DNA of 64,000 bases from Clostridia bacterium (GCA_045590195.1 JAZNQN010000021.1:1352-65351), one strand, 5' to 3'; numbered from the stretch's first letter, positions 15,853 through 61,667 are shown. A program made the numbers and translations. Notes: generated from the sequence alone by a model not told the origin.

Positions 15853-15946
15853 TAAAAACCACCTTTTAACTATACAATATTACCCTTTTGTTATATTATA
15901 TTATGTTTTATTTTATCTGTCAATGTGTTATATTGTTATCGAGGTG

Positions 15947-19438: not shown

Positions 19439-19458
19439 ATTTTTCTCCCTTCTTTAAA

Positions 19459-27744: not shown

Positions 27745-28296
27745 CCAATCACTCCTTTGCCACGTATTTTACAATAACTTTTGCCTTTTGTCAAATATTT
27801 TTTAACGAGTTTTTGAAAAGTTTTTAAAAAATTGTTACAAAAACCATTGCCGAAATCCTTGTTTTTTAAGGGTTTTGCCGATTTTGGAGCTTTTTTAAAA
27901 AAATGTTAAAAAAATTTCTGGAAATTGAATATTTTTACTATATTTTTACATTTTATTACATTTTTTTCCATTTTTAAAAAGGTGTATTTTTTCCTTATTT
28001 TTTCAGAAAAAGCCCATAAAAACGCGGTTTTCACCAAAATTGCACCCCTAAATGTATTGCTGTGTTTTTTTTAAAACCCCAATATGTAGTTGTTGATTTT
28101 TTGGAATTTTAAGGAAATTTATATGTAAAATCCTTCCAAAATCAAGCTTTTAAGGCACTGCTTTTGAGCCTTTAAAATTATTAAAATTTATTACAAAACT
28201 AATCCGCCAAAATCATTTAAATTCTGACGGATTACTGCAATTATTTTTTCAAAATATTATGAGTTTCTTCCTATTATTATATAATAATATATAAAA

Positions 28297-28893
28297 CTAC
28301 TGGCTGCAGGTATATGGGGCAAGCTCAAGTTTTACAAAATATCCCTTTTCGTGACTGCAAACAGGGCAATGCTCGGGAACATCTTTTCCGCTATGAATAT
28401 GGCCGCAATTAAGACACATCCATTTTGTTTCATTTTCGCAGGAGTAAAGTTTATTTTGTTCCATCATTTCCTGAAACATTTTAAAGCGGTCGCCATGAGT
28501 TTTTTCAATTTTGGCAATCATTTTAAAAGATGCGGCAATGCTTTGAAAACCTTCTTCTCTTGCCTTTTGTTCAAAGGCAGGGTAAGCGTCGCCGCTTTCT
28601 TCAAACTCGTTATGGGCGGCGCATTTTAAAATTTCTGCCATTGACTCGTTTATATCAACTGGATACGAGCCATCAATTTTAATATTCTCGCCTGCACATT
28701 CTTTTAAATGGTTATAAAAAATTTCGGCGTGTTCCTTTTCCTGACCTGCGGTAAATTTAAAAACTTCTTCAAGGGCATAATGCTTTTGTGCTCTTGCCTG
28801 AGAAGCGGCAAAGGTATAGCGGTTTCTTGCCTGGCTTTCGCCTGCAAAGGCACGCATTAAATTAAGCCTTGTTTCGCTTTGTTTAAAATCCAT
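28297..28893 (-). CDS. Rubrerythrin (diiron ferritin-like domain + C-terminal rubredoxin-like CxxC...CxxC)
   Basis: Start set to ATG 28891-28893 (MDFKQSE) with RBS aaggagg. The ORF-track start at 28953 has no RBS. ExxH diiron motifs. C-terminal CLNCGH...CPVCSH. Confidence 0.85.
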   Translation of the reverse strand: MDFKQSETRLNLMRAFAGESQARNRYTFAASQARAQKHYALEEVFKFTAGQEKEHAEIFYNHLKECAGENIKIDGSYPVDINESMAEILKCAAHNEFEESGDAYPAFEQKAREEGFQSIAASFKMIAKIEKTHGDRFKMFQEMMEQNKLYSCENETKWMCLNCGHIHSGKDVPEHCPVCSHEKGYFVKLELAPYTCSQ

Positions 28894-29042
28894 AGTAAAA
28901 TCCTCCTTATATATAATAAGGATATTTTTACCTTTTTTTATTTTTTTATTCAAAGTTTAAGAGAGCGGCAAAGCCGCTCCCCTAAAAAATGTTATAAAGG
29001 AAATTGCAATTTTCGTTTTTTGGAAAATCAAGATTTTCCTCT

Positions 29043-29867
29043 TTATAGCATAAACTCATAAAGGTCGCGTGTTACAACCATTTCGCTATTCTCGTGTGAC
29101 TGCAAAAACGATACAGGCATAAAGCGGGACTCATCCTGAAGGGAAATTTTGCGGGCTATACCCCACTGCCAGTCGCAGTAAAGATAAACTTTTAAAACTT
29201 TTGCTTTAAGAAGCTGTTTCATACCGAGAGTTACGCATCTTCTCGGGAAAATTTCAAGAGCACCACGCATTTTGTGAAGGCCGTTATTTACAATTGTTTC
29301 TTTTGAAATATCAAGCTTTCTTGTGCCGATATTTTTGTATTCTTCATCGGTAATATTTTCGTCCTGTGCAGGAGGCTCGTTAAATGCAATATGGCCGTTT
29401 ATGCCTACGCCTGTAAGGCAGATGTCAACTTTACCCAAGGTTTCAAAAAGTGCGTCAATTTCAGCTTCTTTTCCTGGTTCAGGGAAAAGGCGCTGGCTTT
29501 CAGGCATAATAAGGTCTTTATCAATTTTTGAATAGAGAAGATTATCCATAATCTGATGGAAGCTTAAAATACTTTCGTATTCAATGGTTTCATCATTATC
29601 TGTAAGATATTCATCCATATTGATAAACCAGCAATTTTTAAGGTTTATTCTTTCTTTATTGATAATTTCTGCAAATGGCGGATACTGCATAATTGGGCCA
29701 ACAGGGCAGATAATTACAGTTTTTTCGCCTTTTTTGTTGTTTTCGATAATGGTATCAGCCATAAGACGAGCCATTTCGTCATACATTTCGGCCTCTTTTT
29801 CCATAACACGCATTGGAATTTTTGCGTTTTCAAGCCATTTTTCAGGTGCGCAGGTATAAGTGTTCAT
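29043..29867 (-). CDS. Glucosamine/galactosamine-6-phosphate isomerase family protein (NagB/AgaI-like)
   Basis: 274 aa. FINMDEYL and GVGINGHIAFNEP blocks of the sugar-phosphate isomerase/deaminase family. Confidence 0.7.
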   Translation of the reverse strand: MNTYTCAPEKWLENAKIPMRVMEKEAEMYDEMARLMADTIIENNKKGEKTVIICPVGPIMQYPPFAEIINKERINLKNCWFINMDEYLTDNDETIEYESILSFHQIMDNLLYSKIDKDLIMPESQRLFPEPGKEAEIDALFETLGKVDICLTGVGINGHIAFNEPPAQDENITDEEYKNIGTRKLDISKETIVNNGLHKMRGALEIFPRRCVTLGMKQLLKAKVLKVYLYCDWQWGIARKISLQDESRFMPVSFLQSHENSEMVVTRDLYEFML

Positions 29868-29879
29868 TTTAAATTCTCC

Positions 29880-31043
29880 TTATTTTATAAATTTTCCGCC
29901 AATCATTACTTTGGCAGGATATAAATTTTCATCAGCAATATAAATATCAGCAAGCTTGCCCTTTTCAAGAGAGCCGATTTCTTTCTCCATTCCTATAACT
30001 TTGGCAGGAGTAAGGCTTGCCATTTTAGTAGCATCTACAAGCGGTATTCCGTTTTCAACTATGTTTCTGAGCATCTGTGAAAGCGGCTGAATACTGCCTG
30101 CAAAACGAGTTCCATCGGTAAGGCGGGCAACCCCATCGGAAACGATAAACTTTGTTGCCTCCTCATCGTCTTTCATACCGAGGGTATAAACTCTGCCATC
30201 GCGTGGCATTCCGCCTGCACGAAGACAATCGGAAACAATACAGAGCTTATCTGCCCCTTTGCATTTATAAGCAACCTTTAAAAGTTCGGGGATAATATGA
30301 TGATTATCTGCTAAAAGCTCAAGGGTAAGCCTTTCGTCGGTAAGGCCTATTTCCATAAGGCCTGCATATCTTTTGCCTTCTTCAACCCTTGCGGTTGACA
30401 TTGCGCAGTACCAGTGAGTACAGTTTGAAAGGCCTGCTTCAATACAGGGGTAAATTGTATCGCTTCTGCCATCATCGTGTCCGCCGGAAACTACAATTCC
30501 CTTTTCTTTTAGTGCTTTTGTCATTTCTACTGCTCCGGGAAGCTCGGTAGAAATAGTAACATTTTTAATAACATCGCTGTTATCTAAAATAAAATCGTAG
30601 CTGTCTTTACTTGGCACACGCAAAAATTCTGCTTTTTGTGCGCCCTTATTTTTATAAGAGATATAAGGCCCTTCAATATGTGCGCCCAAAACGCGGCATA
30701 TATCGGTTTTTTTCATATATTCTCTTGTTCTTTTAACCATAAACTCAATACTTTTTACAGGGGCGGTTACAGAAGATGTTAAAAGCGATGTTGTACCGCT
30801 GCTGCTATGAAATTTAAGGGCGTTTTCATAGTCTTCAATATCTTCATCCATAAAGTCGCCGCCAAAGCCGCCATGAGTATGAATGTCGACAAGGCCGGGG
30901 AGAACATATTTTCCCGTAGCATCATATTCTTCTCCCCCTGAAAGGGCGTAGCCTATTTCTACTATTTTATCGCCTTCAATTTTAATATCGGCGCCTTCTA
31001 AAATTTCGTCCTTTAAAACAAGATTACCGTTTTTAATTATCAT
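29880..31043 (-). CDS. nagA: N-acetylglucosamine-6-phosphate deacetylase
   Basis: 387 aa. GLVDIHTHGGFGGDFMD metal-binding motif. Amidohydrolase fold. Confidence 0.85.
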   Translation of the reverse strand: MIIKNGNLVLKDEILEGADIKIEGDKIVEIGYALSGGEEYDATGKYVLPGLVDIHTHGGFGGDFMDEDIEDYENALKFHSSSGTTSLLTSSVTAPVKSIEFMVKRTREYMKKTDICRVLGAHIEGPYISYKNKGAQKAEFLRVPSKDSYDFILDNSDVIKNVTISTELPGAVEMTKALKEKGIVVSGGHDDGRSDTIYPCIEAGLSNCTHWYCAMSTARVEEGKRYAGLMEIGLTDERLTLELLADNHHIIPELLKVAYKCKGADKLCIVSDCLRAGGMPRDGRVYTLGMKDDEEATKFIVSDGVARLTDGTRFAGSIQPLSQMLRNIVENGIPLVDATKMASLTPAKVIGMEKEIGSLEKGKLADIYIADENLYPAKVMIGGKFIK

Positions 31044-32410
31044 TTTATCACATCCTCAATTTTTGAAACAATGCCATAATCGGCATATTCGAAAATTCTT
31101 GCATCTTTATCGGGATTTATGGCAATTACGGTTTTTGCGCTTTCAATAGCACAGGTATGCTGAACAGCGCCCGAAATTCCAATTGCAATATAAATGGCAG
31201 GCGAAACGTTTTTGCCCGTAAGCCCAACCTGACATTCGTAAGGCAAAACCCCTTTATCAACCGCAGAGCGTGATGCCGCAACAGTGCCGCCTATTTCTTT
31301 AGCAAAGGCTTTTATTCTATCAAGAGCGTCTACCGCCCCCGCTCCTGTCGAAACCAAAATATTACTGCTTTCAGAAACAACTCTCGCCGTTGCCATTTGC
31401 GGAAGAGTAAGAGATTTTATTTTCGCAATAATGCTGCCGCTTCCTGCAGGGCGATACATATAAAGGGTTTCGCCGCTGCATTCAAAATGGGTACAGTCAG
31501 CACAAAGGCCGAGCGATAATTTTGCCGCCACTATGGGAGCCGTTCTTCTGCCCCAGATATCTGCATTCCACAAAACTGCCACAGGCTTTTTTAAAAGTAT
31601 CATATCGGCAATTTTTTGCGGATCTTTTTCCAAAATCAGCTCTACTTTTTCGGCTATTTCTTTTGTTTTTTCAAAAACCTCTTCCCCTATTGCAAAAGCA
31701 AAAGAAACTTTTTCGCCGCTTTTTTTCTCGAAAATTGCCTCCTCTTTCTCGGAAAGGCTTTTTTCGATTACTTCCATCAGCTCTCCCTTTGAAATAAACT
31801 TACATTTTCTCTGCCCCATACTGCTTTCAAAGGTTTTTAAAACCCTTGTAGGAGAGCCAGAAAGGCCGCATTTTTCAGTATCGGCGCCAACAAAATCGTT
31901 TGACAGCACTTCCACCTCGCCAACCTTTGAGCGAAGAGAAGGAAAACGCAGTTTGTTTATTCTTTCAACGGTTATAAGGGCTGGAAGGGGTGCCTTTTCA
32001 CATTCTGAAAGCCTTGTTCTGCAGGAAATTTCATTTTCGCTGCAATTAAGCTCCAAAACATTTGTAATTACGGGAACAGAAAGCATTTCGGACAAAAGCG
32101 GACCTGTTTGAGCAGTATCGCCATCAATACTCTGGCGGCCGCAGATAATAAGGTCATATTCCATTTTTTTAATGGCACAGGACAAAATGTAAGCCGTTGC
32201 AAGAGTATCGCTGCCTGCAAAGGCGCTATCGCAAAGCATTTTTACTTTTGCCCCAAGCCTTGTTAAGGGCAAAAGGGCATCTTTTGCCGATGGCGGCGCC
32301 ATACTTAAAACAGTTACATCGCCCGAAAGAGTTAGTGCCGCCTCTATGGCACACTGGTCGAAGGGGTTTATCTCCCCTTTTATAACTTTAACCAAAACTA
32401 AAATTTTCAT
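31040..32410 (-). CDS. Single-polypeptide electron-transfer flavoprotein (EtfB-like N-terminal half fused to EtfA-like FAD-binding C-terminal half)
   Basis: N-terminus MKILVLVKVIKGEINPFDQCAIEAALTL is an EtfB start. C-terminus GISGAVQHTCAIESAKTVIAINPDKDARIFEYADYGIV is the EtfA FAD domain. Total 456 aa. Confidence 0.7.
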   Translation of the reverse strand: MKILVLVKVIKGEINPFDQCAIEAALTLSGDVTVLSMAPPSAKDALLPLTRLGAKVKMLCDSAFAGSDTLATAYILSCAIKKMEYDLIICGRQSIDGDTAQTGPLLSEMLSVPVITNVLELNCSENEISCRTRLSECEKAPLPALITVERINKLRFPSLRSKVGEVEVLSNDFVGADTEKCGLSGSPTRVLKTFESSMGQRKCKFISKGELMEVIEKSLSEKEEAIFEKKSGEKVSFAFAIGEEVFEKTKEIAEKVELILEKDPQKIADMILLKKPVAVLWNADIWGRRTAPIVAAKLSLGLCADCTHFECSGETLYMYRPAGSGSIIAKIKSLTLPQMATARVVSESSNILVSTGAGAVDALDRIKAFAKEIGGTVAASRSAVDKGVLPYECQVGLTGKNVSPAIYIAIGISGAVQHTCAIESAKTVIAINPDKDARIFEYADYGIVSKIEDVIK

Positions 32411-33879
32411 ATTTCTTCACTGTAAATCGGCGCAAGAGCATCGTGCACCGCTTTATACTTTTCAAATAATTTAAGATATTTTTCGTGGTTTTCCATATTT
32501 GGCACAGTTTCGCTTATAATCTCGTTACATTTTTCCTGAGCATCGGCAAAAGAAGTAAAAAAGCCACAGGAAACACCTGCCATAATGGCACTTCCAAGGG
32601 AAGAATCGGAGCTTTTTTTCTCGATTAAGCCAATTCCAAGCACATCGGCAACAATCTGCCTCCAGAGAGGGCTTTTTGCGCCGCCGCCTATAATAAACGC
32701 CTTTTCTTTATGGTTTATATTTTTACTGTCAAGATATTTTTTACAATCAAGCAGCGAAAATGCAACGCCTTCAAGCACTGCACGGGTAAAATGTGCCTTT
32801 GTATGATGAGCCCTGACGCCTATAAAGCTGCCGCAAAGGTTAGGGTCAGCATAAGGGGTAAGCTCGCCGTTTAAATATGGATGAAACATAAGCCCTTCGC
32901 ATCCGGGCTCAATTTTCTCTGCGCCCTTATCAAGCTCTTTATAGTCGCCACCGAAGGTATCACGATACCACCTGAGAGATGCGGCGCAGCTTTTTGTAGC
33001 AGTTCCAGGGTACCAAAGGCCCTCTGTAACGTGGCTGTAGTTTACAAAATCGCGGTCGGGATAAGGCTTATCAGTTATAGTACAAATTCTGCCTGCAGTT
33101 GCAAGCTTAATTGTTATATCTCCCTTTTCGGTAGCGCCTGCTGCCAAAACCTCGAGGGCAGTATCGGTTGTGCCGCACAAAACTGCAGTGCCCTCGCAAA
33201 GGCCGCACTTTTTCGCCGCCTCAGCCGTAACTGTACCAACAATTTCCGAAGGTGCTTTAACAGTTGGGAGCATATCAGGAGTGATATGTGCCATAGCGCA
33301 AAGGCTTTCATCCCACGCCTTTTTGTTAAAATCAAAAAACATACTGCCCTGCGCCTCTATGTAATCGGTAACAAAATCGCCCGTTAAACAGTGGCGCACA
33401 TAGTCTTTTGAAAACATAATTTTACGAATCTTTTTAAAGGTTTCGCCCTCGTTTTCATAAAGCCAAAGCATTTGGGGAAGTGTCCAGATAGTTGAAGGCT
33501 TATGAAAGGTTTTCTTCATAATTTCTTCGCCGAAATTTTCTGAAAGAAATTTGCTCTGAGCCGTACTTCTTGTATCGGTCCAGTAAATTGAAGGGCGCAA
33601 TATATTAAAGTTTTCGTCACACAAAACGGCGGTGTGAGTTGCCGCATCAATGGAAATTGCGGCAATATCGTTTGCCGAAATGCCGCTGTTTTCCAAAATA
33701 TTCTTAACGTTCTCACGAAGAGCCTGATACCAGTCCTCTCCCTTTTGTTCTACAAAACCGTTTTGTGGGTAATATGTTTTATATTCGGTTGTGGAAACCG
33801 CTTTTATTTCTCCGCTTTCAGAAAGCAGTGTGGCTTTGGAAGCTCCGCCGCCAAAATCAATTCCCAGTACGTATTTCAT
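32407..33879 (-). CDS. FGGY-family carbohydrate kinase
   Basis: 490 aa. N-terminal YVLGIDFGGGASKATL. Two actin-like ATPase domains. Confidence 0.8.
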   Translation of the reverse strand: MKYVLGIDFGGGASKATLLSESGEIKAVSTTEYKTYYPQNGFVEQKGEDWYQALRENVKNILENSGISANDIAAISIDAATHTAVLCDENFNILRPSIYWTDTRSTAQSKFLSENFGEEIMKKTFHKPSTIWTLPQMLWLYENEGETFKKIRKIMFSKDYVRHCLTGDFVTDYIEAQGSMFFDFNKKAWDESLCAMAHITPDMLPTVKAPSEIVGTVTAEAAKKCGLCEGTAVLCGTTDTALEVLAAGATEKGDITIKLATAGRICTITDKPYPDRDFVNYSHVTEGLWYPGTATKSCAASLRWYRDTFGGDYKELDKGAEKIEPGCEGLMFHPYLNGELTPYADPNLCGSFIGVRAHHTKAHFTRAVLEGVAFSLLDCKKYLDSKNINHKEKAFIIGGGAKSPLWRQIVADVLGIGLIEKKSSDSSLGSAIMAGVSCGFFTSFADAQEKCNEIISETVPNMENHEKYLKLFEKYKAVHDALAPIYSEEI

Positions 33880-33891
33880 AGCAATAATCCT

Positions 33892-34689
33892 TTACTTATT
33901 AAGGTATGCGTAGTCTTCATCAGTTGTCATAAAGAAGCCACGGTTTTTGCCGGCCATAATCCAGAGATAGTAGTTTTTGCCCGCAGGAGCACACGCAAAT
34001 GGATGGTATCCTCTGTGAATTTCAACAGCATCGCCGCTTTTAACTTTAATAGTTTCGTCAATATCGCCTTCTTTTGTGTAAACCAGCTGAATGCCCATTC
34101 CGGCAGGCTCTTCAAACTCGTAGTAGTAAACTTCTTCTGTGTTGGCTTCAACCGGCATATTATCATCATCGTGTTTATGTGGTGGGAATGATGACCACTG
34201 GCCGCCTTCAACATAAGCTTCGCCAATATAAATAATATCAGCATCAACTCTTTCATCTAAAATAAAGTGAGCCTGACGCTGCCATCCCGGTTTGCCAAGG
34301 TCTTTAATAATTACATCTTCAGCATTTATGAGCTTTGGCTCGAAATCGCGGTCTGCAGGGCATTTTGCAACTGCAATTGTAACCTCGCCTACTGCTGTAA
34401 TTGTAAATTCAGTATTTCTAGGAACATAAACGCATGTTGCCGCACCATCGAACACATTTTTTCTTTTACCAATATTTTCAAAAGTGAAATTTTCGCCTGC
34501 AACTGTACATTTACCACCCAAAATTGTAAGGCCGTATTCTTTATCGGTTTCGCTGTATTTTTTGGTTTCGCCATCGCGAAGTTTAACCATATCAAGCTCG
34601 ATTAAATCAACGCTGCTGTTAGCTTTTGTAATAATTTCGCTTTTACCGTATTTACCATTCCAGCTTTTCTTTAAATTCATCAAATCCAC
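33892..34689 (-). CDS. iolB: 5-deoxy-glucuronate isomerase (IolB-type, KduI/IolB cupin family)
   Basis: QWSSFPPHKHDDDNMPVE...EEVYYYEF, DIDETIKVKSGDAVEIHRGYHPF and YYLWIMAG match B. subtilis IolB blocks (NWSSYPPHKHDQDNLPEE, SIDETMTV...PAGYHPV, YYLNVMAG). Confidence 0.75.
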   Translation of the reverse strand: MDLMNLKKSWNGKYGKSEIITKANSSVDLIELDMVKLRDGETKKYSETDKEYGLTILGGKCTVAGENFTFENIGKRKNVFDGAATCVYVPRNTEFTITAVGEVTIAVAKCPADRDFEPKLINAEDVIIKDLGKPGWQRQAHFILDERVDADIIYIGEAYVEGGQWSSFPPHKHDDDNMPVEANTEEVYYYEFEEPAGMGIQLVYTKEGDIDETIKVKSGDAVEIHRGYHPFACAPAGKNYYLWIMAGKNRGFFMTTDEDYAYLNK

Positions 34690-35584
34690 GCTCCTTTAAA
34701 AATTTAACTGTTTCCTCATAGGTTGGAACTGCATCTCTCGCACCAACTTTTGTGCATTTAATTGCAGAAACCGCGCTGGAGAAAACGCACGAGTTGTAGT
34801 AAGAAAATCCTTTTTCTGCCGCAAAAGCAAAGGCTCCGTGAAAAACATCGCCTGCGCCGTTTGAATCTACGGCGTCAACCTTAAACGACGGATATTCTCT
34901 TATTTCGCCGCCTTCGAGGATAATACCTCCTTTTTTGCCCTGAGTAATTACAATTACTTCAGGCGAAAAAAGCTCATAAAGTTTTTTGGCAGCATTTTTT
35001 GCGTTGCTCTCGCCCGTAAAGGAGAGGGCAAATTCCTCGGAAGGGATTAAAATATCTGCAAAGGGCAGCAATTTTTCTACCCCTTCATACATTCCGCCCG
35101 CATCATACAAAACCTTTGTTCCGCTTTTTTTGGCAAGGACAGCACCTTTTATGGCGTTTTCCATTTCGTTGCCGTCAACAAGCAAGATTTTTGCATTTTT
35201 AATCGCTTCCTGCTTTTTATTATCCAGCTCAAATTTTGGCAGGTTTTGTTTATTGAAAACGCAGGTTCTGCTGGCATTTTCAAGGCTTAAAAGAATATAT
35301 GATGCAAAAGATGATGCTCCTTCTACCCTGTCAACACACTCGGTTGATACGCCGAATTTTTCCAAATCGGCATACAAAAATTTTCCCGATGCATCGCAGG
35401 CGAGCGCACCTATATATGCACACTCAGCTCCCAGAGTTGCAGCGGTAGTAAGGGCGGTGGCGCAAGGGCCACCTCCACATTCTTTAACGCTTTGGCAGGG
35501 GAACTTTTTATCTTCCTCAGGATAAGTATTTATGGTAATAAGCGTATCGTGCACATTGGCACCAATACCAACTATTTTACTCAT
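34652..35584 (-). CDS. PfkB/ribokinase-family sugar kinase
   Basis: 310 aa. C-terminal DAVDSNGAGDVFHGAFA (anion hole/ATP motif). 3' end overlaps the iolB-like start by 38 nt. Confidence 0.75.
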   Translation of the reverse strand: MSKIVGIGANVHDTLITINTYPEEDKKFPCQSVKECGGGPCATALTTAATLGAECAYIGALACDASGKFLYADLEKFGVSTECVDRVEGASSFASYILLSLENASRTCVFNKQNLPKFELDNKKQEAIKNAKILLVDGNEMENAIKGAVLAKKSGTKVLYDAGGMYEGVEKLLPFADILIPSEEFALSFTGESNAKNAAKKLYELFSPEVIVITQGKKGGIILEGGEIREYPSFKVDAVDSNGAGDVFHGAFAFAAEKGFSYYNSCVFSSAVSAIKCTKVGARDAVPTYEETVKFLKERGFDEFKEKLEW

Positions 35585-36408
35585 GCTCTTCCCTCAGCCC
35601 CTAAAAGTTTAATTTTGCCCATAGCAAATTCTTTTACATTTTGTACTGCATCTTTCATAAACATATCAATTGCAACTTTATCTCTTGGAGTTTCAAAAAC
35701 TTTGTCAAGGAATGAGTAGCATACATCTGTTCCGAAGTTAACTTTTTTGATACCACGTTTAATAGATTCTATAATCTGCTCATCAGGAATACCGCTTCCG
35801 CCGTGAAGCACGAGAGGAATATTTGCCGCATCACGGATATCGCTTATTCTCTGCATATCAAGCTTTGGCTCTTTTTTGTATCTGCCGTGAGCAGTACCTA
35901 CCATAACGGCAAGGGAGCAAACGCCTGTTTTGTCCACAAATTCTGCCGCTTCTTCAGGCTTTGTAAATTCGCCCATATGGTCATCGTTAACAGTTCCAAC
36001 GTGGCCAAGCTCGCCTTCAACGGGAACGCCAATGCTCGCGCACAAATCCACAATTTTTTTGGTAAGGGCAACGTTTTCGTCAAAGCTATAAGCAGAGCCA
36101 TCTATCATAATGCCTGTAGCGCCGCCGCGAAGTGCTTTCATAACCTCTTTTTCAGAAGCGCCGTGGTCAAGATGAAAACAAATCGGAACCTTTGCCGCTT
36201 TAGCCGCCGCAACTGCAAGAGGCGCAACGTAGTAACCCTCGCCGTTTGTAAAAAGGCGTGAGTAACACTGAATTACAATCGGAGCCGAAAGCTCATCTGC
36301 AGCCGCAACAATACCCATTGCAGTTTCCATATTGTAAACGTTAAATGCAGGAAGTGCAAATTCTGCATTTTCTGTATATTTTAAAAGGTCTTTAAGATTT
36401 ACAAGCAT
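35581..36408 (-). CDS. Class II fructose-/tagatose-bisphosphate aldolase family protein (KbaY/IolJ-like)
   Basis: 275 aa. FHLDHGAS zinc-binding block. LHGGSG. Translationally coupled on both sides. Confidence 0.8.
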   Translation of the reverse strand: MLVNLKDLLKYTENAEFALPAFNVYNMETAMGIVAAADELSAPIVIQCYSRLFTNGEGYYVAPLAVAAAKAAKVPICFHLDHGASEKEVMKALRGGATGIMIDGSAYSFDENVALTKKIVDLCASIGVPVEGELGHVGTVNDDHMGEFTKPEEAAEFVDKTGVCSLAVMVGTAHGRYKKEPKLDMQRISDIRDAANIPLVLHGGSGIPDEQIIESIKRGIKKVNFGTDVCYSFLDKVFETPRDKVAIDMFMKDAVQNVKEFAMGKIKLLGAEGRA

Positions 36409-37493
36409 TCTGCCACAGCCTCCTCAATTGTTAAAATATCTACGTTTTCAGGTTTATACATATTCAAGAGATAGTATTCAGCCGCAGAAGTTGTAACCAA
36501 AGTGGTAGCGCCCATACGAATGGCATCTTCCCATCTTCTTTCTGCAACCTGTTTCATAACTGATGGCATATATTCGTTCATAATAAGGTTACCTGCAAAA
36601 ACTGTGTCTTTTTTAGTTAAAAGCATTTCGCAAAGTGAGCCGCATTTTGAAAGAATTTCACGGGTTTTATCAGTTTCGTCAACATCGCGCATCAAAAGTG
36701 CGTTATCCTGCGGAGTATAAGCTTTTCCGCTGTTTTTGGGGCTTATTGCACCTGAAGCAATTTTTTCTGCAATATAAGAAGTAAATGTTACAACCTCGGC
36801 AGAAAGAGCTATTCCCCATTCTTTGTATTCACGAAGGAAAACTTTTGCATCAGCCGCATCGTAGGCTACTATTTTCTTGTAGCCGTTTAATGCTTTCGCA
36901 GTATCTTCCATAACTTTTTTAGTTTCATCAGCTGCTCCGAATAAAAAGTCGAGAGCGTAGCCGCTGTCAGGCTCATCAGCGAGCACTGTAAAGCCTTCGC
37001 CCATTTTTTCCATAAGCTCAATAGCTTTTATTGCTTTATCAGGAGTTTTGTAAATTGCATCTTTACCAAGGAAGAAAAGTGTATCAGCATCTTTTGGAAG
37101 TGAATTTATTTTTGCAAGAAGGTCACTGCAGAAGCTGTCTTTTCCGAAAACATTACCTTTTTCTTCAATATTTGCAAGAAGAGTTTCAATGTGAGCAGGA
37201 ATTTTTCCCTCAAGTGCTGCTGCAAGGCGGGCCTCTTTAGTAAACTGAACAGGATCCCAGCCTGTCACGCAGTCGTTTGAGCAGGCGCCGCAAAGGGCAC
37301 ATTCGTAAAGGTTATCAATAATATCCTGCGAGAAAGGAACGCCTTCTCTTGCAACCATTGCAAGGGAAAGAGCTCTTGCCCTTGGAGTATTTCTTTCGTG
37401 GCCGGTAGCATTTCCTATCGGGCATATATGGCGGCACATCCAGCAAAAGCGGCATGCGTCAAATGTAGTTTTACTTTTTTCTGAAATCTGCAT
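36399..37493 (-). CDS. Fe-S oxidoreductase partner protein (2x[4Fe-4S] ferredoxin motifs plus a C-terminal domain of unknown function)
   Basis: CRFCWMCRHICP and CALCGACSNDC motifs. 364 aa. No CCG motifs. Overlaps the upstream FAD oxidase by 10 nt. Confidence 0.65.
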   Translation of the reverse strand: MQISEKSKTTFDACRFCWMCRHICPIGNATGHERNTPRARALSLAMVAREGVPFSQDIIDNLYECALCGACSNDCVTGWDPVQFTKEARLAAALEGKIPAHIETLLANIEEKGNVFGKDSFCSDLLAKINSLPKDADTLFFLGKDAIYKTPDKAIKAIELMEKMGEGFTVLADEPDSGYALDFLFGAADETKKVMEDTAKALNGYKKIVAYDAADAKVFLREYKEWGIALSAEVVTFTSYIAEKIASGAISPKNSGKAYTPQDNALLMRDVDETDKTREILSKCGSLCEMLLTKKDTVFAGNLIMNEYMPSVMKQVAERRWEDAIRMGATTLVTTSAAEYYLLNMYKPENVDILTIEEAVAECL

Positions 37494-37505
37494 TATAACC
37501 CCTCC

Positions 37506-38930
37506 TTAAAGTCCAAGTTTAAACGGATTCATAATTCCGTTTGGATCGAGCTGTTTTTTAATTCCTTCAAGAACCTGCATTGCAGGGCCGTACTGTTCTT
37601 TCATAAGGCGGCCAAGCTTTAAGCCAACGCCGTGATGGTCGTTAACAACGCCACCGTTTGCGAGCGCTGTTCTGACGCCAAGGTTCCAGATATCGTTATG
37701 AAGTCTTAACGCTTCATGTGGGTCCTGTGGAGGATTATCAACAATAAATCTGTCGTAAATCATACAGCCCCATTCATACCAGTGTGAGAAGTGAGCAATG
37801 TATCTTGCCATCGGGAAGTTGGTTTCAATAGCTTCTTTCATTGCCCAGTAAATTTTTTCAATGTTATCGTAAGTAGCAATTGTATCAATTGTACCAAACA
37901 TCTGAGGAAGGTCCATCATATGTCCCGGATAGAAGAATGTAATTTTTTCTTTCCACCATTTTTCGCCGTATTCGCTGCCCAAATCTTCTGCGCCGTATTT
38001 GCCGAAAATTTCCATAAGAATTTTATGTTCAACGGCTACAAGCTCTGCAGGGCCTTCGATAGCAATATTCATAAATGCACCTTTTTTCTCAACGCCTACA
38101 ATCTTTTTAATTAAGGTTGCAGTTTCAGCCTCGTCGTAAAGGCGCATTACAGAAGGTTTGAATTTCTGCAAAAGCTCACGGCTTGCGTTAAAGGCATCTG
38201 TCATATTCTGGAACAAAAATCCACGGAACTTTCTTTCCTCAGGCTGATCGTAAATTCTCATCTGAGCTTTTGTAATAACACCAAGTGTACCCTCTGAGCC
38301 TATGAAAATCTGATTGAGGTCTGGGCCTGCGGCGTGTTTTGGAACGGGAGATGTTTCAATAATATCACCGTTTGGCAAAACAACCTCCATCTGGAGCACC
38401 ATATCGTCAATTTTACCATATTTAGTAGAAGAAACGCCTATTCCACGGTGAGCCAAAAAGCCGCCAACTGTTGAACAGGTAAGTGAGCTTGGGTAATGCA
38501 TTGTTGCATAGCCTTTTTCGTTTGCCGCCCATTCAATATGTTTGTAAACGGAGCCTGTTCCACATTCTATGTACATGCTCTTTGTGTTAATATCGTAAAT
38601 TTTGTTCATTCTCTTTGTATCGAGAAGTATTCCGCCCGCTACAGGCAAAGCGCCGCCCTGTGAGCCGGCACCGCCGCCCCATGTTGTAACAGGAATTTTA
38701 TAGTAGTTTGCAATTTTTAAAACCTTTGAGGTTTCCTGCGCGTCTTTAGGCGATACAATAATATCGGCCTCAGGCATTCTGCCGCCGCGGTCTGTCCACA
38801 TTCTTGAAAGCCAGAAGTAGTCAACCCCGTGAGAAATTTTATCAATTTCTCTTGTTGAGCAGTTTTCTCTGCCAACGGCATCTTCCAGCTCGGACAAAAT
38901 CATATCCATCATAAAATCGTTAAGCTGCAT
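37506..38930 (-). CDS. FAD-linked oxidase / 2-hydroxy-acid dehydrogenase (GlcD/D-lactate dehydrogenase-like)
   Basis: FAD_binding_4-type N-terminal domain (VTTWGGGAGSQGGALP), C-terminal FAD-oxidase_C. Start placed at ATG 38928-38930 (MQLNDF), 9 nt after GGAGG. The ORF-track start at 38966 lacks an RBS. Confidence 0.75.
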   Translation of the reverse strand: MQLNDFMMDMILSELEDAVGRENCSTREIDKISHGVDYFWLSRMWTDRGGRMPEADIIVSPKDAQETSKVLKIANYYKIPVTTWGGGAGSQGGALPVAGGILLDTKRMNKIYDINTKSMYIECGTGSVYKHIEWAANEKGYATMHYPSSLTCSTVGGFLAHRGIGVSSTKYGKIDDMVLQMEVVLPNGDIIETSPVPKHAAGPDLNQIFIGSEGTLGVITKAQMRIYDQPEERKFRGFLFQNMTDAFNASRELLQKFKPSVMRLYDEAETATLIKKIVGVEKKGAFMNIAIEGPAELVAVEHKILMEIFGKYGAEDLGSEYGEKWWKEKITFFYPGHMMDLPQMFGTIDTIATYDNIEKIYWAMKEAIETNFPMARYIAHFSHWYEWGCMIYDRFIVDNPPQDPHEALRLHNDIWNLGVRTALANGGVVNDHHGVGLKLGRLMKEQYGPAMQVLEGIKKQLDPNGIMNPFKLGL

Positions 38931-39037
38931 TTTTTCCATCCTCCATTTTTTGAAAATTATTTTCATTTTTTGAAAAAATATTTACAATTACATTATACAC
39001 GAATAAAAATTTTTTTCAATAGTTTTTTAAAATTTTT

Positions 39038-39066
39038 TTGACAAATTCGGCAAAATATGATAAAAT
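39038..39066 (+). promoter_or_regulatory. Sigma-A promoter of the rpiR-family gene
   Basis: TTGACA (39038-39043) - 17 nt - TAAAAT (39061-39066). Confidence 0.55.
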
Positions 39067-39092
39067 TTTAAAAAAATGATACCGAGGTATGT

Positions 39093-39926
39093 ATGAACAG
39101 AACAATTTTACAGATAAAAGTTTTATATGATAAGATGGGCGGAGCCGAAAAAAAGATTGCCGACTGGCTTTTCGAAAACCCTTCGGCTATTATTCCCCTC
39201 TCAATTACAGAGCTTGCCGAGGCGTGTGGCTGCGGCGAAGCAACTATTGTAAGATTTGCAAAAAGGTTGGGGTTTCCCGGTTATCAGGCGCTTAAAATTG
39301 CCATTGCCCAAAATGACAGAGGCGAAAATGTCAGTAGTGCAGTTGACAAAAATGCCACCTGCACCGAAATTTTTTCAAAAATTTCAAACGATATTTACTG
39401 TTCCCTTGAAAAAACAAAACAGATTATTGACGAAGCCGCTTTTAAAAAAGCCGCCGAAATTATAATTTCTTCCAAAAACATTTATATTTTCGGGCTTGGA
39501 AATTCTTCGTCAATTGCAATTGATGCGGCACATAAATTTATGCGCGCAGGGCTAAACGCTTTTTCATACTGCGACAACCATATGCAGGCAATTGCCGCTT
39601 CTCACCTTTCAAAAGGCGATCTGGCAATCGGCATTTCCCATTCCGGTTCTTCCAAAGATATTGTTGAAGCTTTGGAAATTGCCGCAGAGCGTGGCGCAGA
39701 AACAATTTCGATTACAAACCGCGGAAAGTCGCCTATTGTTAAAAAAAGCTCCGTTGCTCTTTTTACTTCTTCAGACGAAACAGAACATTCTATTCTGGGG
39801 CTTAATTCCCGTATAGCAGCTCTCACAATTATTGATACGCTTTATGCATTTATTGTCAATAATACCCCCGCTGCACCGGAGGCAATCAGCAGAGTTGAAG
39901 TTGCTTTGAAGGATAAGAAATATTAG
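39093..39926 (+). CDS. RpiR/MurR-family transcriptional regulator (HTH_6 + SIS domain)
   Basis: 277 aa. N-terminal HTH ITELAEACGCGEATIVRFAKRLGFPGYQALK. C-terminal SIS phosphosugar-binding domain. Divergent from the catabolic cluster. Confidence 0.85.
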   Translation: MNRTILQIKVLYDKMGGAEKKIADWLFENPSAIIPLSITELAEACGCGEATIVRFAKRLGFPGYQALKIAIAQNDRGENVSSAVDKNATCTEIFSKISNDIYCSLEKTKQIIDEAAFKKAAEIIISSKNIYIFGLGNSSSIAIDAAHKFMRAGLNAFSYCDNHMQAIAASHLSKGDLAIGISHSGSSKDIVEALEIAAERGAETISITNRGKSPIVKKSSVALFTSSDETEHSILGLNSRIAALTIIDTLYAFIVNNTPAAPEAISRVEVALKDKKY

Positions 39927-39940
39927 AAGATATATACGCA

Positions 39941-39967
39941 AAAAAGCACCCGATCGGGTGCTTTTTT
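39941..39967 (+). terminator. Rho-independent terminator of the rpiR-family gene
   Basis: aaaaagcaccc-gatc-gggtgctttttt. Confidence 0.8.
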
Positions 39968-39989
39968 ATGGCTTTCAAGTACGAAATAG

Positions 39990-40175
39990 ATGCAAGATAT
40001 TTTAGCTAAATTTTGCACATTCGTGCAAAGCGAAATTATTGCTCCGCAATAGCTAAATTGTTTCTTGCGAAACAGCTAAATTAAATTCGCCTTTAGCGTG
40101 TGTAGCACATTTAGCTGCCGCAGGCAATTTAGCTGAACTTGTTCAATTTAGCTCGCCGCCAGGCGAATTTAGCTG
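39990..40175. repeat. Array of 7 copies of the palindromic half-site AATTTAGCT (3 as AGCTAAATT, then 4 as AATTTAGCT), each followed by a short GC-rich palindromic spacer
   Basis: Copies at about 40003, 40051, 40074 (AGCTAAATT) and 40108, 40127, 40145, 40166 (AATTTAGCT). Reverse copies are spaced 18-21 bp apart. Spacers are gccgcaggc / gaacttgttc / cgccgccaggcg. Joined, the half-sites give the perfect palindrome AATTTAGCTAAATT. Confidence 0.6.
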
Positions 40176-40217
40176 AAAAAAAAGACAGATTTCTTTGTCG
40201 AAATCTGTCTTTTTTTC
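40176..40217. terminator. Bidirectional hairpin terminator (tRNA-Arg 3' side); part of a ~33-nt repeat also found at 61748
   Basis: aaaaaaaagacagatttc-tttgtc-gaaatctgtcttttttt, an 11-bp stem flanked by A8 and T7. Confidence 0.75.
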
Positions 40218-40294
40218 TGGCGTGCCTGAAGGGATTCGAACCCCTGACCTACTGGTCCGTAGCCAGTCACTCTATCCAGCTGAGCTACAGGCAC
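40218..40294 (-). tRNA. tRNA-Arg (anticodon ACG), CCA encoded
   Basis: The reverse complement GTGCCTGTAGCTCAGCTGGATAGAGTGACTGGCTACGGACCAGTAGGTCAGGGGTTCGAATCCCTTCAGGCACGCCA folds as a cloverleaf: acceptor GTGCCTG/CAGGCAC, anticodon loop CTACGGA, T-loop TTCGAAT. Confidence 0.9.
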
Positions 40295-40480
40295 AATTAT
40301 TCACAACGACAATAATTATAGCACATCTAAAATTAAAATGCAACCTTTTTTTCAAAAAAAAATCAAAAAAATTAATTTTGGGTTTTTTAATGGTTATCAC
40401 CGGTATTTATTTGCCAAAAAAATTATTGTTACCTATTTATTTAAAAACCAGTCTACCACTTCACTGTTCCTCATCTCCAC

Positions 40481-40527
40481 CAAATAAAAAGATAAGCACA
40501 AACTATCGTTTGCGCTTATCTTTTTAT
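40481..40527 (-). terminator. Rho-independent terminator of the GH42-like gene
   Basis: Hairpin gataagcacaaac-tatc-gtttgcgcttatc (one mismatch) followed on the minus strand by UUUUAUUUGG. Confidence 0.6.
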
Positions 40528-40533
40528 TATCAA

Positions 40534-42666: not shown

Positions 42667-42858
42667 AAACTTCCTCCTTTTAGCAAAAAATTTTGCTTTA
42701 ATCCTGACAAATTTACATAATTCCTTTTATTTTCGTAGATTGTACCATAGGGATTATTTAAAGTCAAGCATATATAATTTATTTACACGAAAAATTAATT
42801 CAAAGTATTGATTTAAAAATATTGCTATGATATACTTCCTTATATATTATGCTAAAAA

Positions 42859-44859: not shown

Positions 44860-44891
44860 ACTATTGCCAAAAAAATTAAAATATGTTATAC

Positions 44892-44921
44892 TAAACTCGG
44901 GTTTCTTTGAACCCGAGTTTT
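44892..44921 (+). terminator. Rho-independent terminator
   Basis: aaactcgggtt-tctttg-aacccgagttttt. Confidence 0.8.
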
Positions 44922-44941
44922 TATATTAAAGGTGGTTACTT

Positions 44942-51405: not shown

Positions 51406-51407
51406 AA

Positions 51408-52097: not shown

Positions 52098-52099
52098 TT

Positions 52100-53065: not shown

Positions 53066-53137
53066 GTTTTATTATACTGCATATCAAAATATATACAAGA
53101 AATAAAATATACCAAAAATATAAAAATATATACTTTT

Positions 53138-53167
53138 TGTTGACCAAAACCCCAAAATAAAGTATAA
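53138..53167 (+). promoter_or_regulatory. Sigma-A promoter of the AraC-family gene
   Basis: TTGACC (53138-53143) - 18 nt - TATAAT (53162-53167). Confidence 0.5.
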
Positions 53168-53199
53168 TAAATATAAATTTATAAGCAGAGGTGATTATT

Positions 53200-61545: not shown

Positions 61546-61667
61546 ATTAAGCACCTCCTGAAAATAAAAAATTATTTCATTGTGCAACCATAGAGGTTTA
61601 CTACTATTTTCCTAATCTTTGCCCCATTGGCTCTGTTCTATAGTATTCGCATATTATCCACAACCTT

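Follow-up and report, generated by a model that had tools for sequence, protein, structure and literature searches.

A 64,000-nucleotide stretch of DNA from Clostridia bacterium (GCA_045590195.1, JAZNQN010000021.1:1352-65351; hereafter the window, with positions counted from its first letter) carries nine open reading frames (ORFs) on the minus strand at 29043-38966, spanning about 10 kb, and a divergent ORF on the plus strand at 39093-39926 (ORF table, Pfam, NCBIfam). We consider it highly probable that these genes represent one conserved operon under RpiR control, in which an aldolase module is combined with a module made of a YgcU-type flavoenzyme, an electron-transfer flavoprotein (Etf) and an FGGY kinase. 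Central to this sugar catabolic operon is a flavoenzyme whose reaction has yet to be assigned, and no described pathway matching it was found. A first-pass annotation, made from the sequence alone, had already stated that this combination of genes matched no named pathway; literature searches returned no description of it, nor anything relevant on a fused Etf paired with an FGGY kinase, although descriptions under other names are possible.

Gene content and organization of the operon

The first gene of the operon (37506..38930; all nine genes lie on the minus strand) encodes a YgcU/AGPS-like FAD enzyme of the VAO/PCMH superfamily with FAD_binding_4 and FAD-oxidase_C domains. The ORF as listed extends to 38966, but the start codon is most likely the ATG at 38930: it is preceded by GGAGG 9 nt upstream, the resulting protein of 474 aa has the length of its homologues, and its N-terminus, MQLNDFMMDMI, aligns with theirs. 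It is followed by an EtfD-like soluble iron-sulfur (FeS) protein (36399..37493), consisting of an N-terminal 2x[4Fe-4S] domain and a C-terminal CCG-type fold lacking the Cys motifs, a class II ketose-phosphate aldolase (35581..36408, F_bP_aldolase in Pfam and NCBIfam), and a PfkB sugar kinase of the ribokinase branch (34652..35584; Pfam, NCBIfam), the nearest relative of which is the sulfofructose 1-kinase YihV. The next gene encodes an IolB-type cupin aldose-ketose isomerase (33892..34680, KduI/IolB); here, the ATG at 34680, 10 nt past AAGGAG, probably replaces the GTG at 34689 with which the listed ORF begins. An XylB-like FGGY kinase (32407..33879; Pfam, NCBIfam) and a single-chain Etf (31040..32410, ETF + ETF + ETF_alpha) come next, the latter composed of an EtfB core, a shortened EtfA domain I and the EtfA FAD domain II. 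The last two genes encode a NagA-family deacetylase (29880..31043; Pfam, NCBIfam), accessory in this family of loci, whose start overlaps the Etf stop by 4 nt, and a divergent NagB-superfamily deaminase/isomerase without 6-phosphate ligands (29043..29867), for which the NCBIfam match is weak and Pfam gives none. On the opposite strand, an RpiR/MurR-family regulator with HTH_6 and SIS domains is encoded at 39093..39926 (Pfam, NCBIfam). The gene order, domain calls and coordinates given by the first-pass annotation were confirmed for all ten ORFs, including the divergent RpiR/SIS gene. No membrane-helix-length hydrophobic segment was detected in any of the ten proteins.

The genes had also been described as tightly coupled, and indeed the junctions consist of overlaps of 10, 4, 38, 4 and 4 nt or of 12-nt gaps, as expected of one operon. 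Within the region, 33 promoter-like matches were found, compared to 26.7 +/- 4.9 in shuffled sequence, and nine terminator-like matches, compared to 15.1 +/- 4.1, neither of which is above expectation. All sequence signs (the strong promoter, the tight junctions and the conserved operator palindrome described below) agree that the nine genes are a single predicted transcription unit.

Conservation across related genomes

From species-representative genomes, 80 loci were fetched, and their ORFs were called and compared with the window proteins by BLAST. All 80 are titled as assemblies of uncultured organisms, nearly all of them explicitly metagenome-assembled genomes (MAGs), and the hosts are gut and rumen Clostridia, including Oscillospiraceae, Acutalibacteraceae and Monoglobaceae. 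The order flavoenzyme-FeS protein-aldolase-PfkB-IolB-variable slot-FGGY-Etf was kept wherever the contig was long enough, and all seven core genes were present in 30 of the 77 non-redundant loci; another locus (L157) had the same seven genes in a different order. Since the same core order recurs in at least 30 independent genomes, the arrangement cannot be attributed to chance. The flavoenzyme and FeS genes were adjacent in all cases, and FGGY stood directly upstream of Etf in nearly all loci where both were detected, with the exception of two loci in which the NagB-like gene lay between them (L023 and L037) and one in which NagA and other ORFs did so (L079). In a further locus (L005, 8359-11344) we observed RpiR, the operator palindrome, FGGY and the fused Etf only; genes for the flavoenzyme, FeS protein, aldolase, PfkB and IolB were absent within 10 kb.

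The first-pass annotation counted the amino-sugar enzymes among the members of the cluster. The genome-context comparison upheld the seven-gene core in the 30 complete loci, but not this part of the claim, as NagA occurred in 3/30 and the NagB-like gene in 6/30 of them. Other genes were found more frequently: a FucI/SftI-like protein of about 470 aa in 21 of the 30 complete loci, DUF4867 in 11 and an aldose 1-epimerase (mutarotase) in six. The FucI-like protein matches the SftI model NF048012 weakly (100 bits versus a cut-off of 700) and has no match in Pfam or among PDB sequences. Sister loci additionally harboured a PMI-like cupin, at times beside a GH38/MngB-like mannosidase within the operon, a GH36-like gene inside one operon, an AGE-like epimerase, GlmM and a GKRP/MurQ-like SIS protein. 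None of the common accessories (FucI-like, DUF4867, mutarotase, PMI-like, AGE-like and others) is present in the window. From this distribution we conclude that NagA together with the NagB-like protein is one of several interchangeable front ends. In four loci (L016, L019, L044 and L054), genes for a family VIII esterase-like protein (beta-lactamase fold) and an EamA transporter adjoin the FucI-like gene. The operator precedes the EamA gene in L044, while in L054 it precedes the first gene of the pair, which was clustered with the esterase-like family. Such pairs hint at an esterified or lactone substrate.

The core proteins are not equally conserved. Compared with the window protein, the flavoenzyme has a median identity of 85%, and the other six range from 56 to 67%. 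As a separate observation, the flavoenzyme is 80-87% identical across genomes, and the six other core proteins 48-73% identical in the same genomes. The flavoenzyme seems to be under unusually strong constraint, imposed perhaps by several protein interfaces.

Promoters and putative operator

The predicted operon promoter (38992..39019, minus strand) consists of TTGAAA, a 16-nt spacer and TATAAT (11/12 matches to the consensus hexamers) and is the best minus-strand match in 28000-40500. It stands back-to-back with the predicted rpiR promoter (39038..39066, plus strand), composed of TTGACA, a 17-nt spacer and TAAAAT with a TG extension, likewise with 11/12 matches. The direct repeats reported by the first-pass annotation (38944-38978) proved to be real: the 13-nt sequence CATTTTTTGAAAA occurs at 38944-38956 and again at 38964-38976. 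The repeats contain an exact conserved palindrome, TGAAAA-N3-TTTTCA, within their span (38944-38976), and lie in an apparent operator. This first candidate operator, TGAAAATTATTTTCA at 38951..38965, is situated in the 5' untranslated region (UTR) directly before the ribosome-binding site, and is the sole exact site in the 64-kb window. A second candidate with one mismatch, TAAAAATTTTTTTCA at 39004..39018, overlaps the -35 box of the operon promoter. Further operator sites that would extend the regulon within the window, for example to a transporter, were matched at chance level only.

When the RpiR-operon intergenic regions of 16 related loci were aligned, both sites were found at the same two positions, and at the second of them the arrangement CTATTGAAA...TTTTCA...TATAAT was kept in the intergenic regions of the 16 loci. 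The relaxed motif TGAAA[AT]-N3-4-[AT]TTTCA matched 28 times in 1.16 Mb of related loci, 22 of the matches being intergenic and located immediately upstream of the operon's leading gene or next to rpiR. In about 20 other genomes, the palindrome likewise stands upstream of this operon. RpiR homologues with 53-65% identity are encoded divergently beside the same operon in 17 related loci. The conservation of the palindrome is, judged from the alignments, the phylogenetic footprint of an operator, and we infer that RpiR would be the protein that binds it. RpiR would then act as a repressor at the two TGAAAA-N3-TTTTCA sites, one covering the -35 box and the other within the 5' UTR, and would come off once its SIS domain had bound a sugar phosphate.

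The flavoenzyme and its electron-transfer partners

The combination of FAD_binding_4 and FAD-oxidase_C is the domain architecture of GlcD/LDHD/D2HGDH-type dehydrogenases (Pfam), and the first-pass annotation had assigned the flavoenzyme to the lactate/glycolate type. This assignment did not hold. The glcD equivalog model gives 189 bits, compared to a cut-off of 568. In mouse LDHD, the Mn2+ and substrate site is formed by His398, His405, Glu442, Arg347 and His443 (PMC10589216). The residues of the window flavoenzyme at the positions of His398, His405 and Glu442 are His, Gly and His, so that two of the three metal ligands are absent. Among solved structures, the best match was alkyl-dihydroxyacetone phosphate synthase (AGPS, 150 bits), followed by mouse LDHD (124 bits) and LctD (108 bits), and Escherichia coli YgcU is 31% identical over the full length (206 bits). 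Three motifs align with those of AGPS: SVMRLYD with ASIRLMD, AHFSHWYEWG with AHISHTYTNG, and NDHHGVG with SHHHGVG, the first His of the AGPS HHH loop being Asp in the window. RLYD, SHWY and DHHGVG are invariant in 36 members of the flavoenzyme family, and the corresponding motifs of YgcU are RLYD, SHSY and HHHGIG.

We take the AGPS motifs RLxD, SHxY and HHHGVG to represent the catalytic Arg, the Tyr and the His-His loop handling the dihydroxyacetone phosphate (DHAP) moiety. By these motifs, the pocket of the flavoenzyme looks as if built for a DHAP-like phospho-ketone. We know of no assigned bacterial function for flavoenzymes of the AGPS/YgcU type. The Etf, the FeS protein and the sugar enzymes encoded in the operon argue against the redox-neutral role in lipid synthesis that AGPS has. 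Etf-linked oxidation of a 2-hydroxy-acid product, as proposed by the first-pass annotation, is not favoured, since the active site is not of the lactate/glycolate type.

The FeS protein, the 2x[4Fe-4S] partner of the first-pass annotation, contains two CxxCxxCxxxC motifs, all eight Cys of which are invariant, but the remaining 250 residues carry no Cys motif, and the CCG Cys motifs of GlcF, GlpC and HdrD are absent. The best NCBIfam match of the protein is GlpC. Its AlphaFold2 (AF2) model (pLDDT 83) is most similar in fold to EtfD of Mycobacterium smegmatis (E 2e-13, 349 aligned columns, TM-score 0.69 normalised by query length), then to LutA and HdrB, and the C-terminal domain has a LutA/HdrB-like fold. 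On the model, it looks like a soluble, cluster-poor relative of the Etf-oxidising protein and not like a GlcF/GlpC subunit.

The Etf is a single chain of 456 aa and not an alpha/beta heterodimer. Its AF2 model (pLDDT 88) matches both EtfB and EtfA chains, with TM-scores normalised by target length of 0.70-0.75 to EtfB chains and 0.55 to EtfA 4kpu_A, in agreement with the fused EtfBA of the first-pass annotation. A homology search yielded 4986 proteins at E <= 0.001, and the 240 best-scoring homologues listed were all single chains of 449-471 aa; those with a source name all came from MAGs of Clostridia, Oscillospiraceae or Ruminococcaceae. The modelled structure indicates that the Etf is a genuine single-chain fusion. 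By sequence it is closest to bifurcating Etfs, and its N-terminal half best matches LctB. The motifs GISGAVQH and SIDGDTAQTGP are present, and about 20 N-terminal residues of EtfB are missing.

The sugar enzymes

The first-pass annotation read the isomerase, kinase and aldolase as the lower arm of inositol catabolism. As for the isomerase, the model score agrees with this reading: the window IolB reaches 236 bits with TIGR04378, above the cut-off of 205, and a second subtype in sister loci passes as well (219 bits). The two IolB subtypes of the family are about 67% and 37% identical to that of the window. As for the kinase, it failed: the IolC model TIGR04382 gives 95.5 bits versus a cut-off of 300, and the nearest relative is YihV. 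The ribokinase model matches the PfkB protein over its full length (136 bits), while TIGR03168 (33 bits) and TIGR03828 (28 bits) match only partially, which by sequence places it in the ribokinase, or free-sugar, branch and not with FruK, LacC or Pfk2. Its best solved relative is YihV with about 137-138 bits and 33% identity, the next best reaching 87 bits; to YdjH, it scores 55 bits with 23% identity. The sulfonate-binding triad of YihV is K27-R138-N109 (PMC8006165). In the PfkB family, Lys27 is kept, Arg138 is replaced by an invariant Asn, and position 109 is variable, with Asn109 kept in the window protein according to the phmmer alignment.

The nearest solved relatives of the aldolase are, in order, YdjI (39% identity, 200 bits), KbaY/AgaY (36%) and the SqiA sulfofructose-phosphate (SFP) aldolases. 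Its top NCBIfam matches are GatY and tagatose-bisphosphate aldolase (255 bits), every score being under the equivalog cut-off. YdjH and YdjI are named keto-uronate kinase and keto-uronate-1-phosphate aldolase in RefSeq. Judged by these resemblances, the kinase would form, and the aldolase would cleave, a ketose-1-phosphate whose tail bears no phosphate. The FGGY kinase scores 400 bits with the xylulokinase equivalog TIGR01312 (cut-off 380).

NagA passes its model (TIGR00221, 238 bits versus 226) and conserves the HxH motif, Glu131, His195, His216 and Asp273, the position of the phosphate-binding Arg227 being ambiguous. The NagB-like protein falls far below the nagB model (70 bits versus 237) and has no Pfam match, but its catalytic Asp72, His143 and Glu148 are conserved in 17/17 members. 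Arg172 is replaced by Leu, Tyr or Phe and Lys208 by Gln or Asn in every aligned member, and the TGGT loop is two residues shorter in all of them (one row is gapped there). Arg172, Lys208 and the TGGT loop of NagB are presumably the residues that hold the 6-phosphate. As these ligands are missing, a standard route through amino-sugar 6-phosphates is unlikely. The NagB-like protein was encountered only with IolB subtype 1, in 14/38 loci versus 0/22 for the other subtype (Fisher p = 0.001, with independence overstated as the loci are related).

A possible route and its alternatives

We tentatively propose a flow in which a free ketose is split via its 1-phosphate, after which isomerase, kinase and Etf-linked oxidation recover the C3 fragment; we give this scheme somewhat less than even chances. 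The analysis establishes which genes are present, that they form one operon, the conserved synteny and operator, each protein's fold and signature residues, and the recurrence of FGGY, flavoenzyme and Etf in other lineages; we infer in which order the steps run, what each substrate is, which way the electrons flow and where they finally end. In the window, the NagA-type deacetylase and the phosphate-independent NagB-type enzyme would convert an N-acetyl-amino sugar into a free ketose; elsewhere, the front end would be formed by FucI/SftI-, PMI- or AGE-like isomerases, mutarotase, DUF4867 and glycosidases. In the first module, PfkB would make the ketose-1-phosphate, which the class II aldolase would cleave to DHAP and a hydroxy-aldehyde of three or more carbons. 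In the second, the invariant IolB-type isomerase would convert the hydroxy-aldehyde to a ketol, FGGY would phosphorylate the ketol, and the YgcU/AGPS-like flavoenzyme would carry out a two-electron redox adjustment on the DHAP-like phospho-compound. The single-chain Etf and the soluble EtfD-like 2x[4Fe-4S] protein would take over the electrons, which, by analogy with Ldh-EtfAB, would probably end on NAD+ with the help of ferredoxin.

Several points weigh against this scheme. The order of its steps is a construction. The IolB equivalog score argues for a C6 uronate and not a C3 aldehyde as the substrate, and by its score the FGGY kinase is a xylulokinase equivalog and no kinase of trioses or ketols. 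The chief weakness is that, with an ordinary hexulose, the route would be redox-neutral and leave the flavoenzyme, the most conserved protein, nothing to oxidise; the scheme thus calls for a substrate in a more reduced state than a hexose, unless the flavoenzyme serves another purpose or the second module acts first on a polyol-like compound. No transporter adjoins the operon, and neither a transporter nor a sugar-specific glycosidase lies inside the operon of the window. Two homologue searches and a GTDB scan revealed no cultured carrier of the cluster, only MAGs. Finally, the loci are phylogenetically related, so that the counts and the Fisher test overstate independence.

One variant would give the flavoenzyme an oxidation to perform, though we regard it as improbable: the substrates would be sugars lacking the 6-hydroxyl, here 2-acetamido-2,6-dideoxyhexoses such as N-acetylquinovosamine (QuiNAc) and N-acetylfucosamine (FucNAc), and elsewhere fucose, rhamnose, quinovose and similar 6-deoxyhexoses. 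The deacetylase and the phosphate-independent deaminase (FucI-like isomerases elsewhere) would yield a 6-deoxy-ketohexose, from which the YihV-like kinase and class II aldolase would produce DHAP and D- or L-lactaldehyde. IolB would take either lactaldehyde enantiomer to achiral acetol, and FGGY would make acetol phosphate, that is, 1-deoxy-DHAP. The flavoenzyme would then hydroxylate acetol phosphate to DHAP by covalent N5 chemistry of the AGPS type, with water replacing the fatty alcohol, and the two electrons released would go to Etf. This variant would account for the phosphate-free NagB-like protein and for the resemblance to enzymes of 6-deoxy-6-sulfo-sugars; it would also explain why AGPS motifs are present and why an electron acceptor is needed. 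If true, deoxy sugars would be converted into two DHAP in place of excreted propanediol. Equally possible is the reverse reaction, an Etf-bifurcating reductive dehydroxylation of DHAP serving as an energy-conserving electron sink. The main objection to the variant is that the hydroxylation couple lies, by our own estimate, near 0 V, in a quinone-free fermenter without an obvious acceptor.

Splitting of a free ketose via its 1-phosphate has to be weighed against routes of other types. A linear one resembling polyol catabolism (GlpK with GlpD or GlpABC, EryA with EryB) is unlikely. The second module would here act first: FGGY would phosphorylate a polyol or ketose, the flavoenzyme with Etf and FeS protein would oxidise the phospho-polyol to the phosphate of an aldose or ketose, IolB would isomerise the product, PfkB would add a second phosphate and the aldolase would release two triose phosphates. 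Such a route employs each of the seven core proteins once and requires an oxidation, and the AGPS-like pocket suits its DHAP-like ketose-phosphate product, just as the Lys27 retained from the YihV triad fits an anionic phosphorylated ketose. The GlpC match of the FeS protein points in the same direction, as do the E. coli ygc cluster, where the GlpP-like YgcP is encoded beside FGGY, flavoenzyme and Etf genes, and the ygc-type loci, which keep the order SDR-FGGY-flavoenzyme-Etf (SDR, short-chain dehydrogenase/reductase). However, the mutarotase, FucI- and PMI-like, NagA and NagB-like front ends and the glycosidases indicate aldoses, the Clostridial loci have no conserved reductase that would make a polyol, PfkB falls into the ribokinase branch instead of FruK/LacC/Pfk2, and, as NAD-dependent polyol-phosphate dehydrogenases suffice in known pathways, the need for Etf is not obvious. 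Less probable still is the iol-type route suggested by the first-pass annotation, with an iolB-iolC-iolJ arm acting on 5-deoxy-glucuronate or another uronate, an Etf-linked 2-hydroxy-acid dehydrogenase, and classical NagA and NagB acting on amino-sugar 6-phosphates. Both IolB subtypes pass TIGR04378, the aldolase is of class II like IolJ and the kinase retains a weak IolC match (95 bits), but the latter lies far from the cut-off of 300, and PfkB is far closer to YihV than to YdjH. Similarly, the flavoenzyme matches the glcD model, mouse LDHD and LctD, and the Etf is nearest to LctB and LctC of the Ldh-Etf complex; against this stand the Gly and His in place of the LDHD ligands His405 and Glu442, the invariant motifs shared with AGPS/YgcU, the glcD score of 189 versus 568 and the missing CCG cysteines of the FeS protein. 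Genes of the GFO/IDH/MocA and AP_endonuc_2 families (those of IolG and of IolE/IolI, respectively) follow the operon in two loci (L022 and L041), but an IolD-type gene was not seen in the approximately 77 loci, among which query-derived and clustered families were named. In the window, absence of iolG, iolE, iolD and iolA, as noted in the first pass, was corroborated for the operon genes and scanned neighbours, a GFO/IDH/MocA gene lying 20 kb away. Moreover, the known product of the iol arm, malonate semialdehyde, is not a 2-hydroxy acid, and the NagB-like protein has lost the phosphate ligands. Identity as an iol operon was rejected, as the kinase does not pass the IolC model and the upper-arm genes are missing, and so was a standard GlcDF/GlpABC-type oxidase, for which the metal site and the CCG motifs fail.

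Two further readings draw on known sugar-phosphate pathways, and both appear very improbable. According to the one, the operon would be a sulfo-EMP (sulfo-Embden-Meyerhof-Parnas) variant, in which sulfoquinovose from plant sulfolipid is split by isomerase, sulfofructose kinase and class II SFP aldolase to DHAP and sulfolactaldehyde and the latter is oxidised by the flavoenzyme. The hosts are herbivore gut bacteria, YihV is the best solved relative of PfkB, the aldolase resembles SqiA (8q57, 8q58), and sister loci carry the SftI-like isomerase, mutarotase and DUF4867. The last of these corresponds to SftX/SqvB (PMC11968277). Yet the K27-R138-N109 triad is not kept, the SftI model is matched with 100 bits versus 700, FGGY and IolB would have no role, and neither a GH31 sulfoquinovosidase, a sulfolactaldehyde reductase or dehydrogenase nor a sulfonate exporter was present in the window or among the named neighbours in sister loci, where a lone weak GH31 match fell on a GH36-like protein. 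Sulfoglycolysis was rejected on account of the non-conserved sulfonate triad and the lack of a sulfoquinovosidase. According to the other, an ordinary route for N-acetylgalactosamine (GalNAc) or galactosamine with AgaA- and AgaI-like enzymes, a tagatose-6-phosphate kinase and a KbaY/GatY-type aldolase would merely share a transcript with unrelated genes. NagA passing its model, a 54-bit match of the NagB-like protein to the galactosamine-6-phosphate isomerase model, the GatY and tagatose-bisphosphate aldolase matches of the aldolase (255 bits; 36% identity to KbaY) and the GH42 beta-galactosidase gene next door would all fit. But NagA and the NagB-like gene are present in 3/30 and 6/30 complete loci, while IolB, FGGY, flavoenzyme and Etf invariably accompany the aldolase and PfkB; the 6-phosphate ligands are missing, PfkB is not of the LacC, FruK or Pfk2 type, and the aldolase stays under the equivalog cut-offs. 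The standard GalNAc (Aga) route was rejected, since the kinase subfamily and phosphate ligands fail. Nor did we adopt a role in the breakdown of N-acetylmuramic acid (MurNAc), N-glycolylneuraminic acid (Neu5Gc), teichoic acid, galactosylglycerol or mannosylglycerate, from which lactate, glycolate, glycerate or glycerol would be released as substrate for the flavoenzyme. Each of these readings explains some accessories (MurQ/GKRP-like, GH38/MngB-like, GH36/GH2/GH42 or family VIII esterase-like proteins), but none explains the invariant core.

Genomic neighbourhood

At the 3' side of the last operon gene, a hairpin with a weak T tail, GGAGCGGC-TTT-GCCGCTCTC, is predicted at 28961..28981 on the minus strand. 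Transcription of the operon may stop there or continue into a rubrerythrin gene (28297-28953), which lies downstream on the same strand and is followed by a strong terminator at 28200-28234. The rubrerythrin gene may accordingly be co-transcribed with the operon; no ORF of its size was found downstream of the operon in sister loci, not all of whose neighbours were named.

Beyond rpiR, a tRNA-Arg(ACG) gene (40218-40294) separates the regulator from genes for a GH42 beta-galactosidase (40534-42666), a DUF4838 protein (42859-44859) and an SLH-domain protein (44942-46348). The region 40218-46348 is a glycan-foraging neighbourhood. A second amino-sugar locus at 49399-54024 comprises a 668-aa protein with a weak GH42M match (49399-51405), NanE (51408-52097), a BadF/BadG-type sugar kinase (52100-53065) and a divergent AraC regulator (53191-54024). 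It is followed at 54316-61587 by a gene for a protein of 2423 aa with seven blocks of BspA-type leucine-rich repeats (LRRs) and chitobiase/hexosaminidase C-terminal domains, which is probably a surface glycan-binding or glycan-degrading protein. On the other side, a plus-strand gene pair at a distance of 20 kb (15923-17970) encodes a Zn-type alcohol dehydrogenase together with a GFO/IDH/MocA oxidoreductase (16966-17970). Oxaloacetate decarboxylase alpha and beta (18032-20655) and a GGGtGRT-family gene (21559-22551) beside a NifU-like one (22566-23270) are located there as well.

Implications

The core operon occurs widely among uncultured Clostridia in the guts of humans and animals, and it ties a flavoenzyme of the AGPS/YgcU type to sugar catabolism and Etf-based electron transfer. 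Knowledge of the substrate would close a gap in how carbohydrate fermentation in the gut is modelled, and might bring to light a new dehydrogenase reaction of a sugar phosphate that depends on Etf and is possibly confurcating. Through the conserved operator and its putative regulator, the inducer could be sought. At the same time, the long-orphaned E. coli ygc cluster gains a comparative partner.

Comparison with known systems

Individual parts of the operon can be compared with several described systems. The best solved relatives of the flavoenzyme are AGPS/ADPS (PDB 2uuu, 4bby), with which the Arg, Tyr and His-His motifs align. Unlike the window flavoenzyme, however, AGPS is redox-neutral and lipid-binding, does not need Etf and possesses an extra N-terminal domain; the window protein has DHH for HHH, a length of 474 aa, and a position among Etf and sugar enzyme genes. 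The Ldh-EtfAB complex (LctBCD) of Acetobacterium woodii (PDB 7qh2) likewise unites a flavoenzyme of the GlcD fold with a bifurcating-type Etf in a strict anaerobe, but LctD is a metal-dependent 2-hydroxy-acid dehydrogenase and the Etf has two subunits with a ferredoxin domain on EtfA, whereas in the window the Etf is fused and shortened and the FeS clusters reside on a separate EtfD-like protein. In mycobacteria, EtfD is the Etf-oxidising partner, a membrane-bound protein that reduces menaquinone. Mycobacterial EtfD (PDB 9ojn) combines a 2x[4Fe-4S] domain with a CCG-type domain and is the best whole-protein structural match of the FeS protein; it is 742 aa long, compared to 364 aa in the window, where the hydrophobic segment and the Cys of the CCG-type domain are missing.

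As for the sugar enzymes, IolB-IolC-IolJ of Bacillus subtilis are similarly an isomerase, a 1-kinase and a class II aldolase that yield DHAP and a C3 aldehyde, but the window kinase is not of the IolC type, IolG, IolE, IolD and IolA are absent, and flavoenzyme, Etf, FeS protein and FGGY are added. YdjH and YdjI of E. coli also pair a PfkB kinase with a class II aldolase, for a ketose whose tail carries no phosphate; their cluster employs Zn-dehydrogenases, and flavoenzyme and Etf are missing from it. The sulfo-EMP enzymes (YihV, SqiA, SftI/SqvD, SftX/SqvB) provide the nearest kinase, a similar aldolase, and counterparts of the isomerase, DUF4867 and mutarotase of sister loci.

As a system, the nearest relative is the E. 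coli ygc cluster, itself uncharacterised; our literature searches on the function of ygcU and ygcE retrieved nothing relevant. In E. coli K-12 (L085, 2892657-2903374; RefSeq), the genes ygcW-ygcU-ygcS-ygcR-ygcQ are accompanied by yqcE-ygcE on the opposite strand beside ygcW and by ygcN-ygcO-ygcP beyond ygcQ. Their products include FixC-like YgcN, FixX-like YgcO, the GlpP-like antiterminator YgcP, the Etf subunits YgcQ and YgcR, the KduD-like SDR YgcW and the FGGY kinase YgcE. Both clusters contain a YgcU-type FAD enzyme (RLYD / SH-x-Y / HHG), Etf, a small FeS partner and FGGY in a sugar-type locus. They differ in that the ygc cluster has a two-subunit Etf, FixC/FixX-like proteins instead of an EtfD-like one as the partner re-oxidising Etf, a KduD-like SDR, MFS transporters and the GlpP-like antiterminator, but no IolB, PfkB or aldolase, and in that its FGGY kinase is only 25% identical to that of the window. 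A metagenome scan with an alignment of YgcU and the window flavoenzyme returned additional ygc-type loci (L124, L130-L137, L148) with guanine-plus-cytosine (GC) contents of 30-65%. Five of them, of 44-65% GC, share the order SDR-FGGY-YgcU-EtfB-EtfA (L131, L132 with Etf first, L135, L136 and L137); in L148 (30% GC) the order SDR-FGGY-YgcU-Etf is kept with a transporter gene inserted, and L130 has no SDR. Since ygc-type loci of such varied GC content keep the order, FGGY, a YgcU-type flavoenzyme and Etf represent a recurrent unit found in unrelated lineages.

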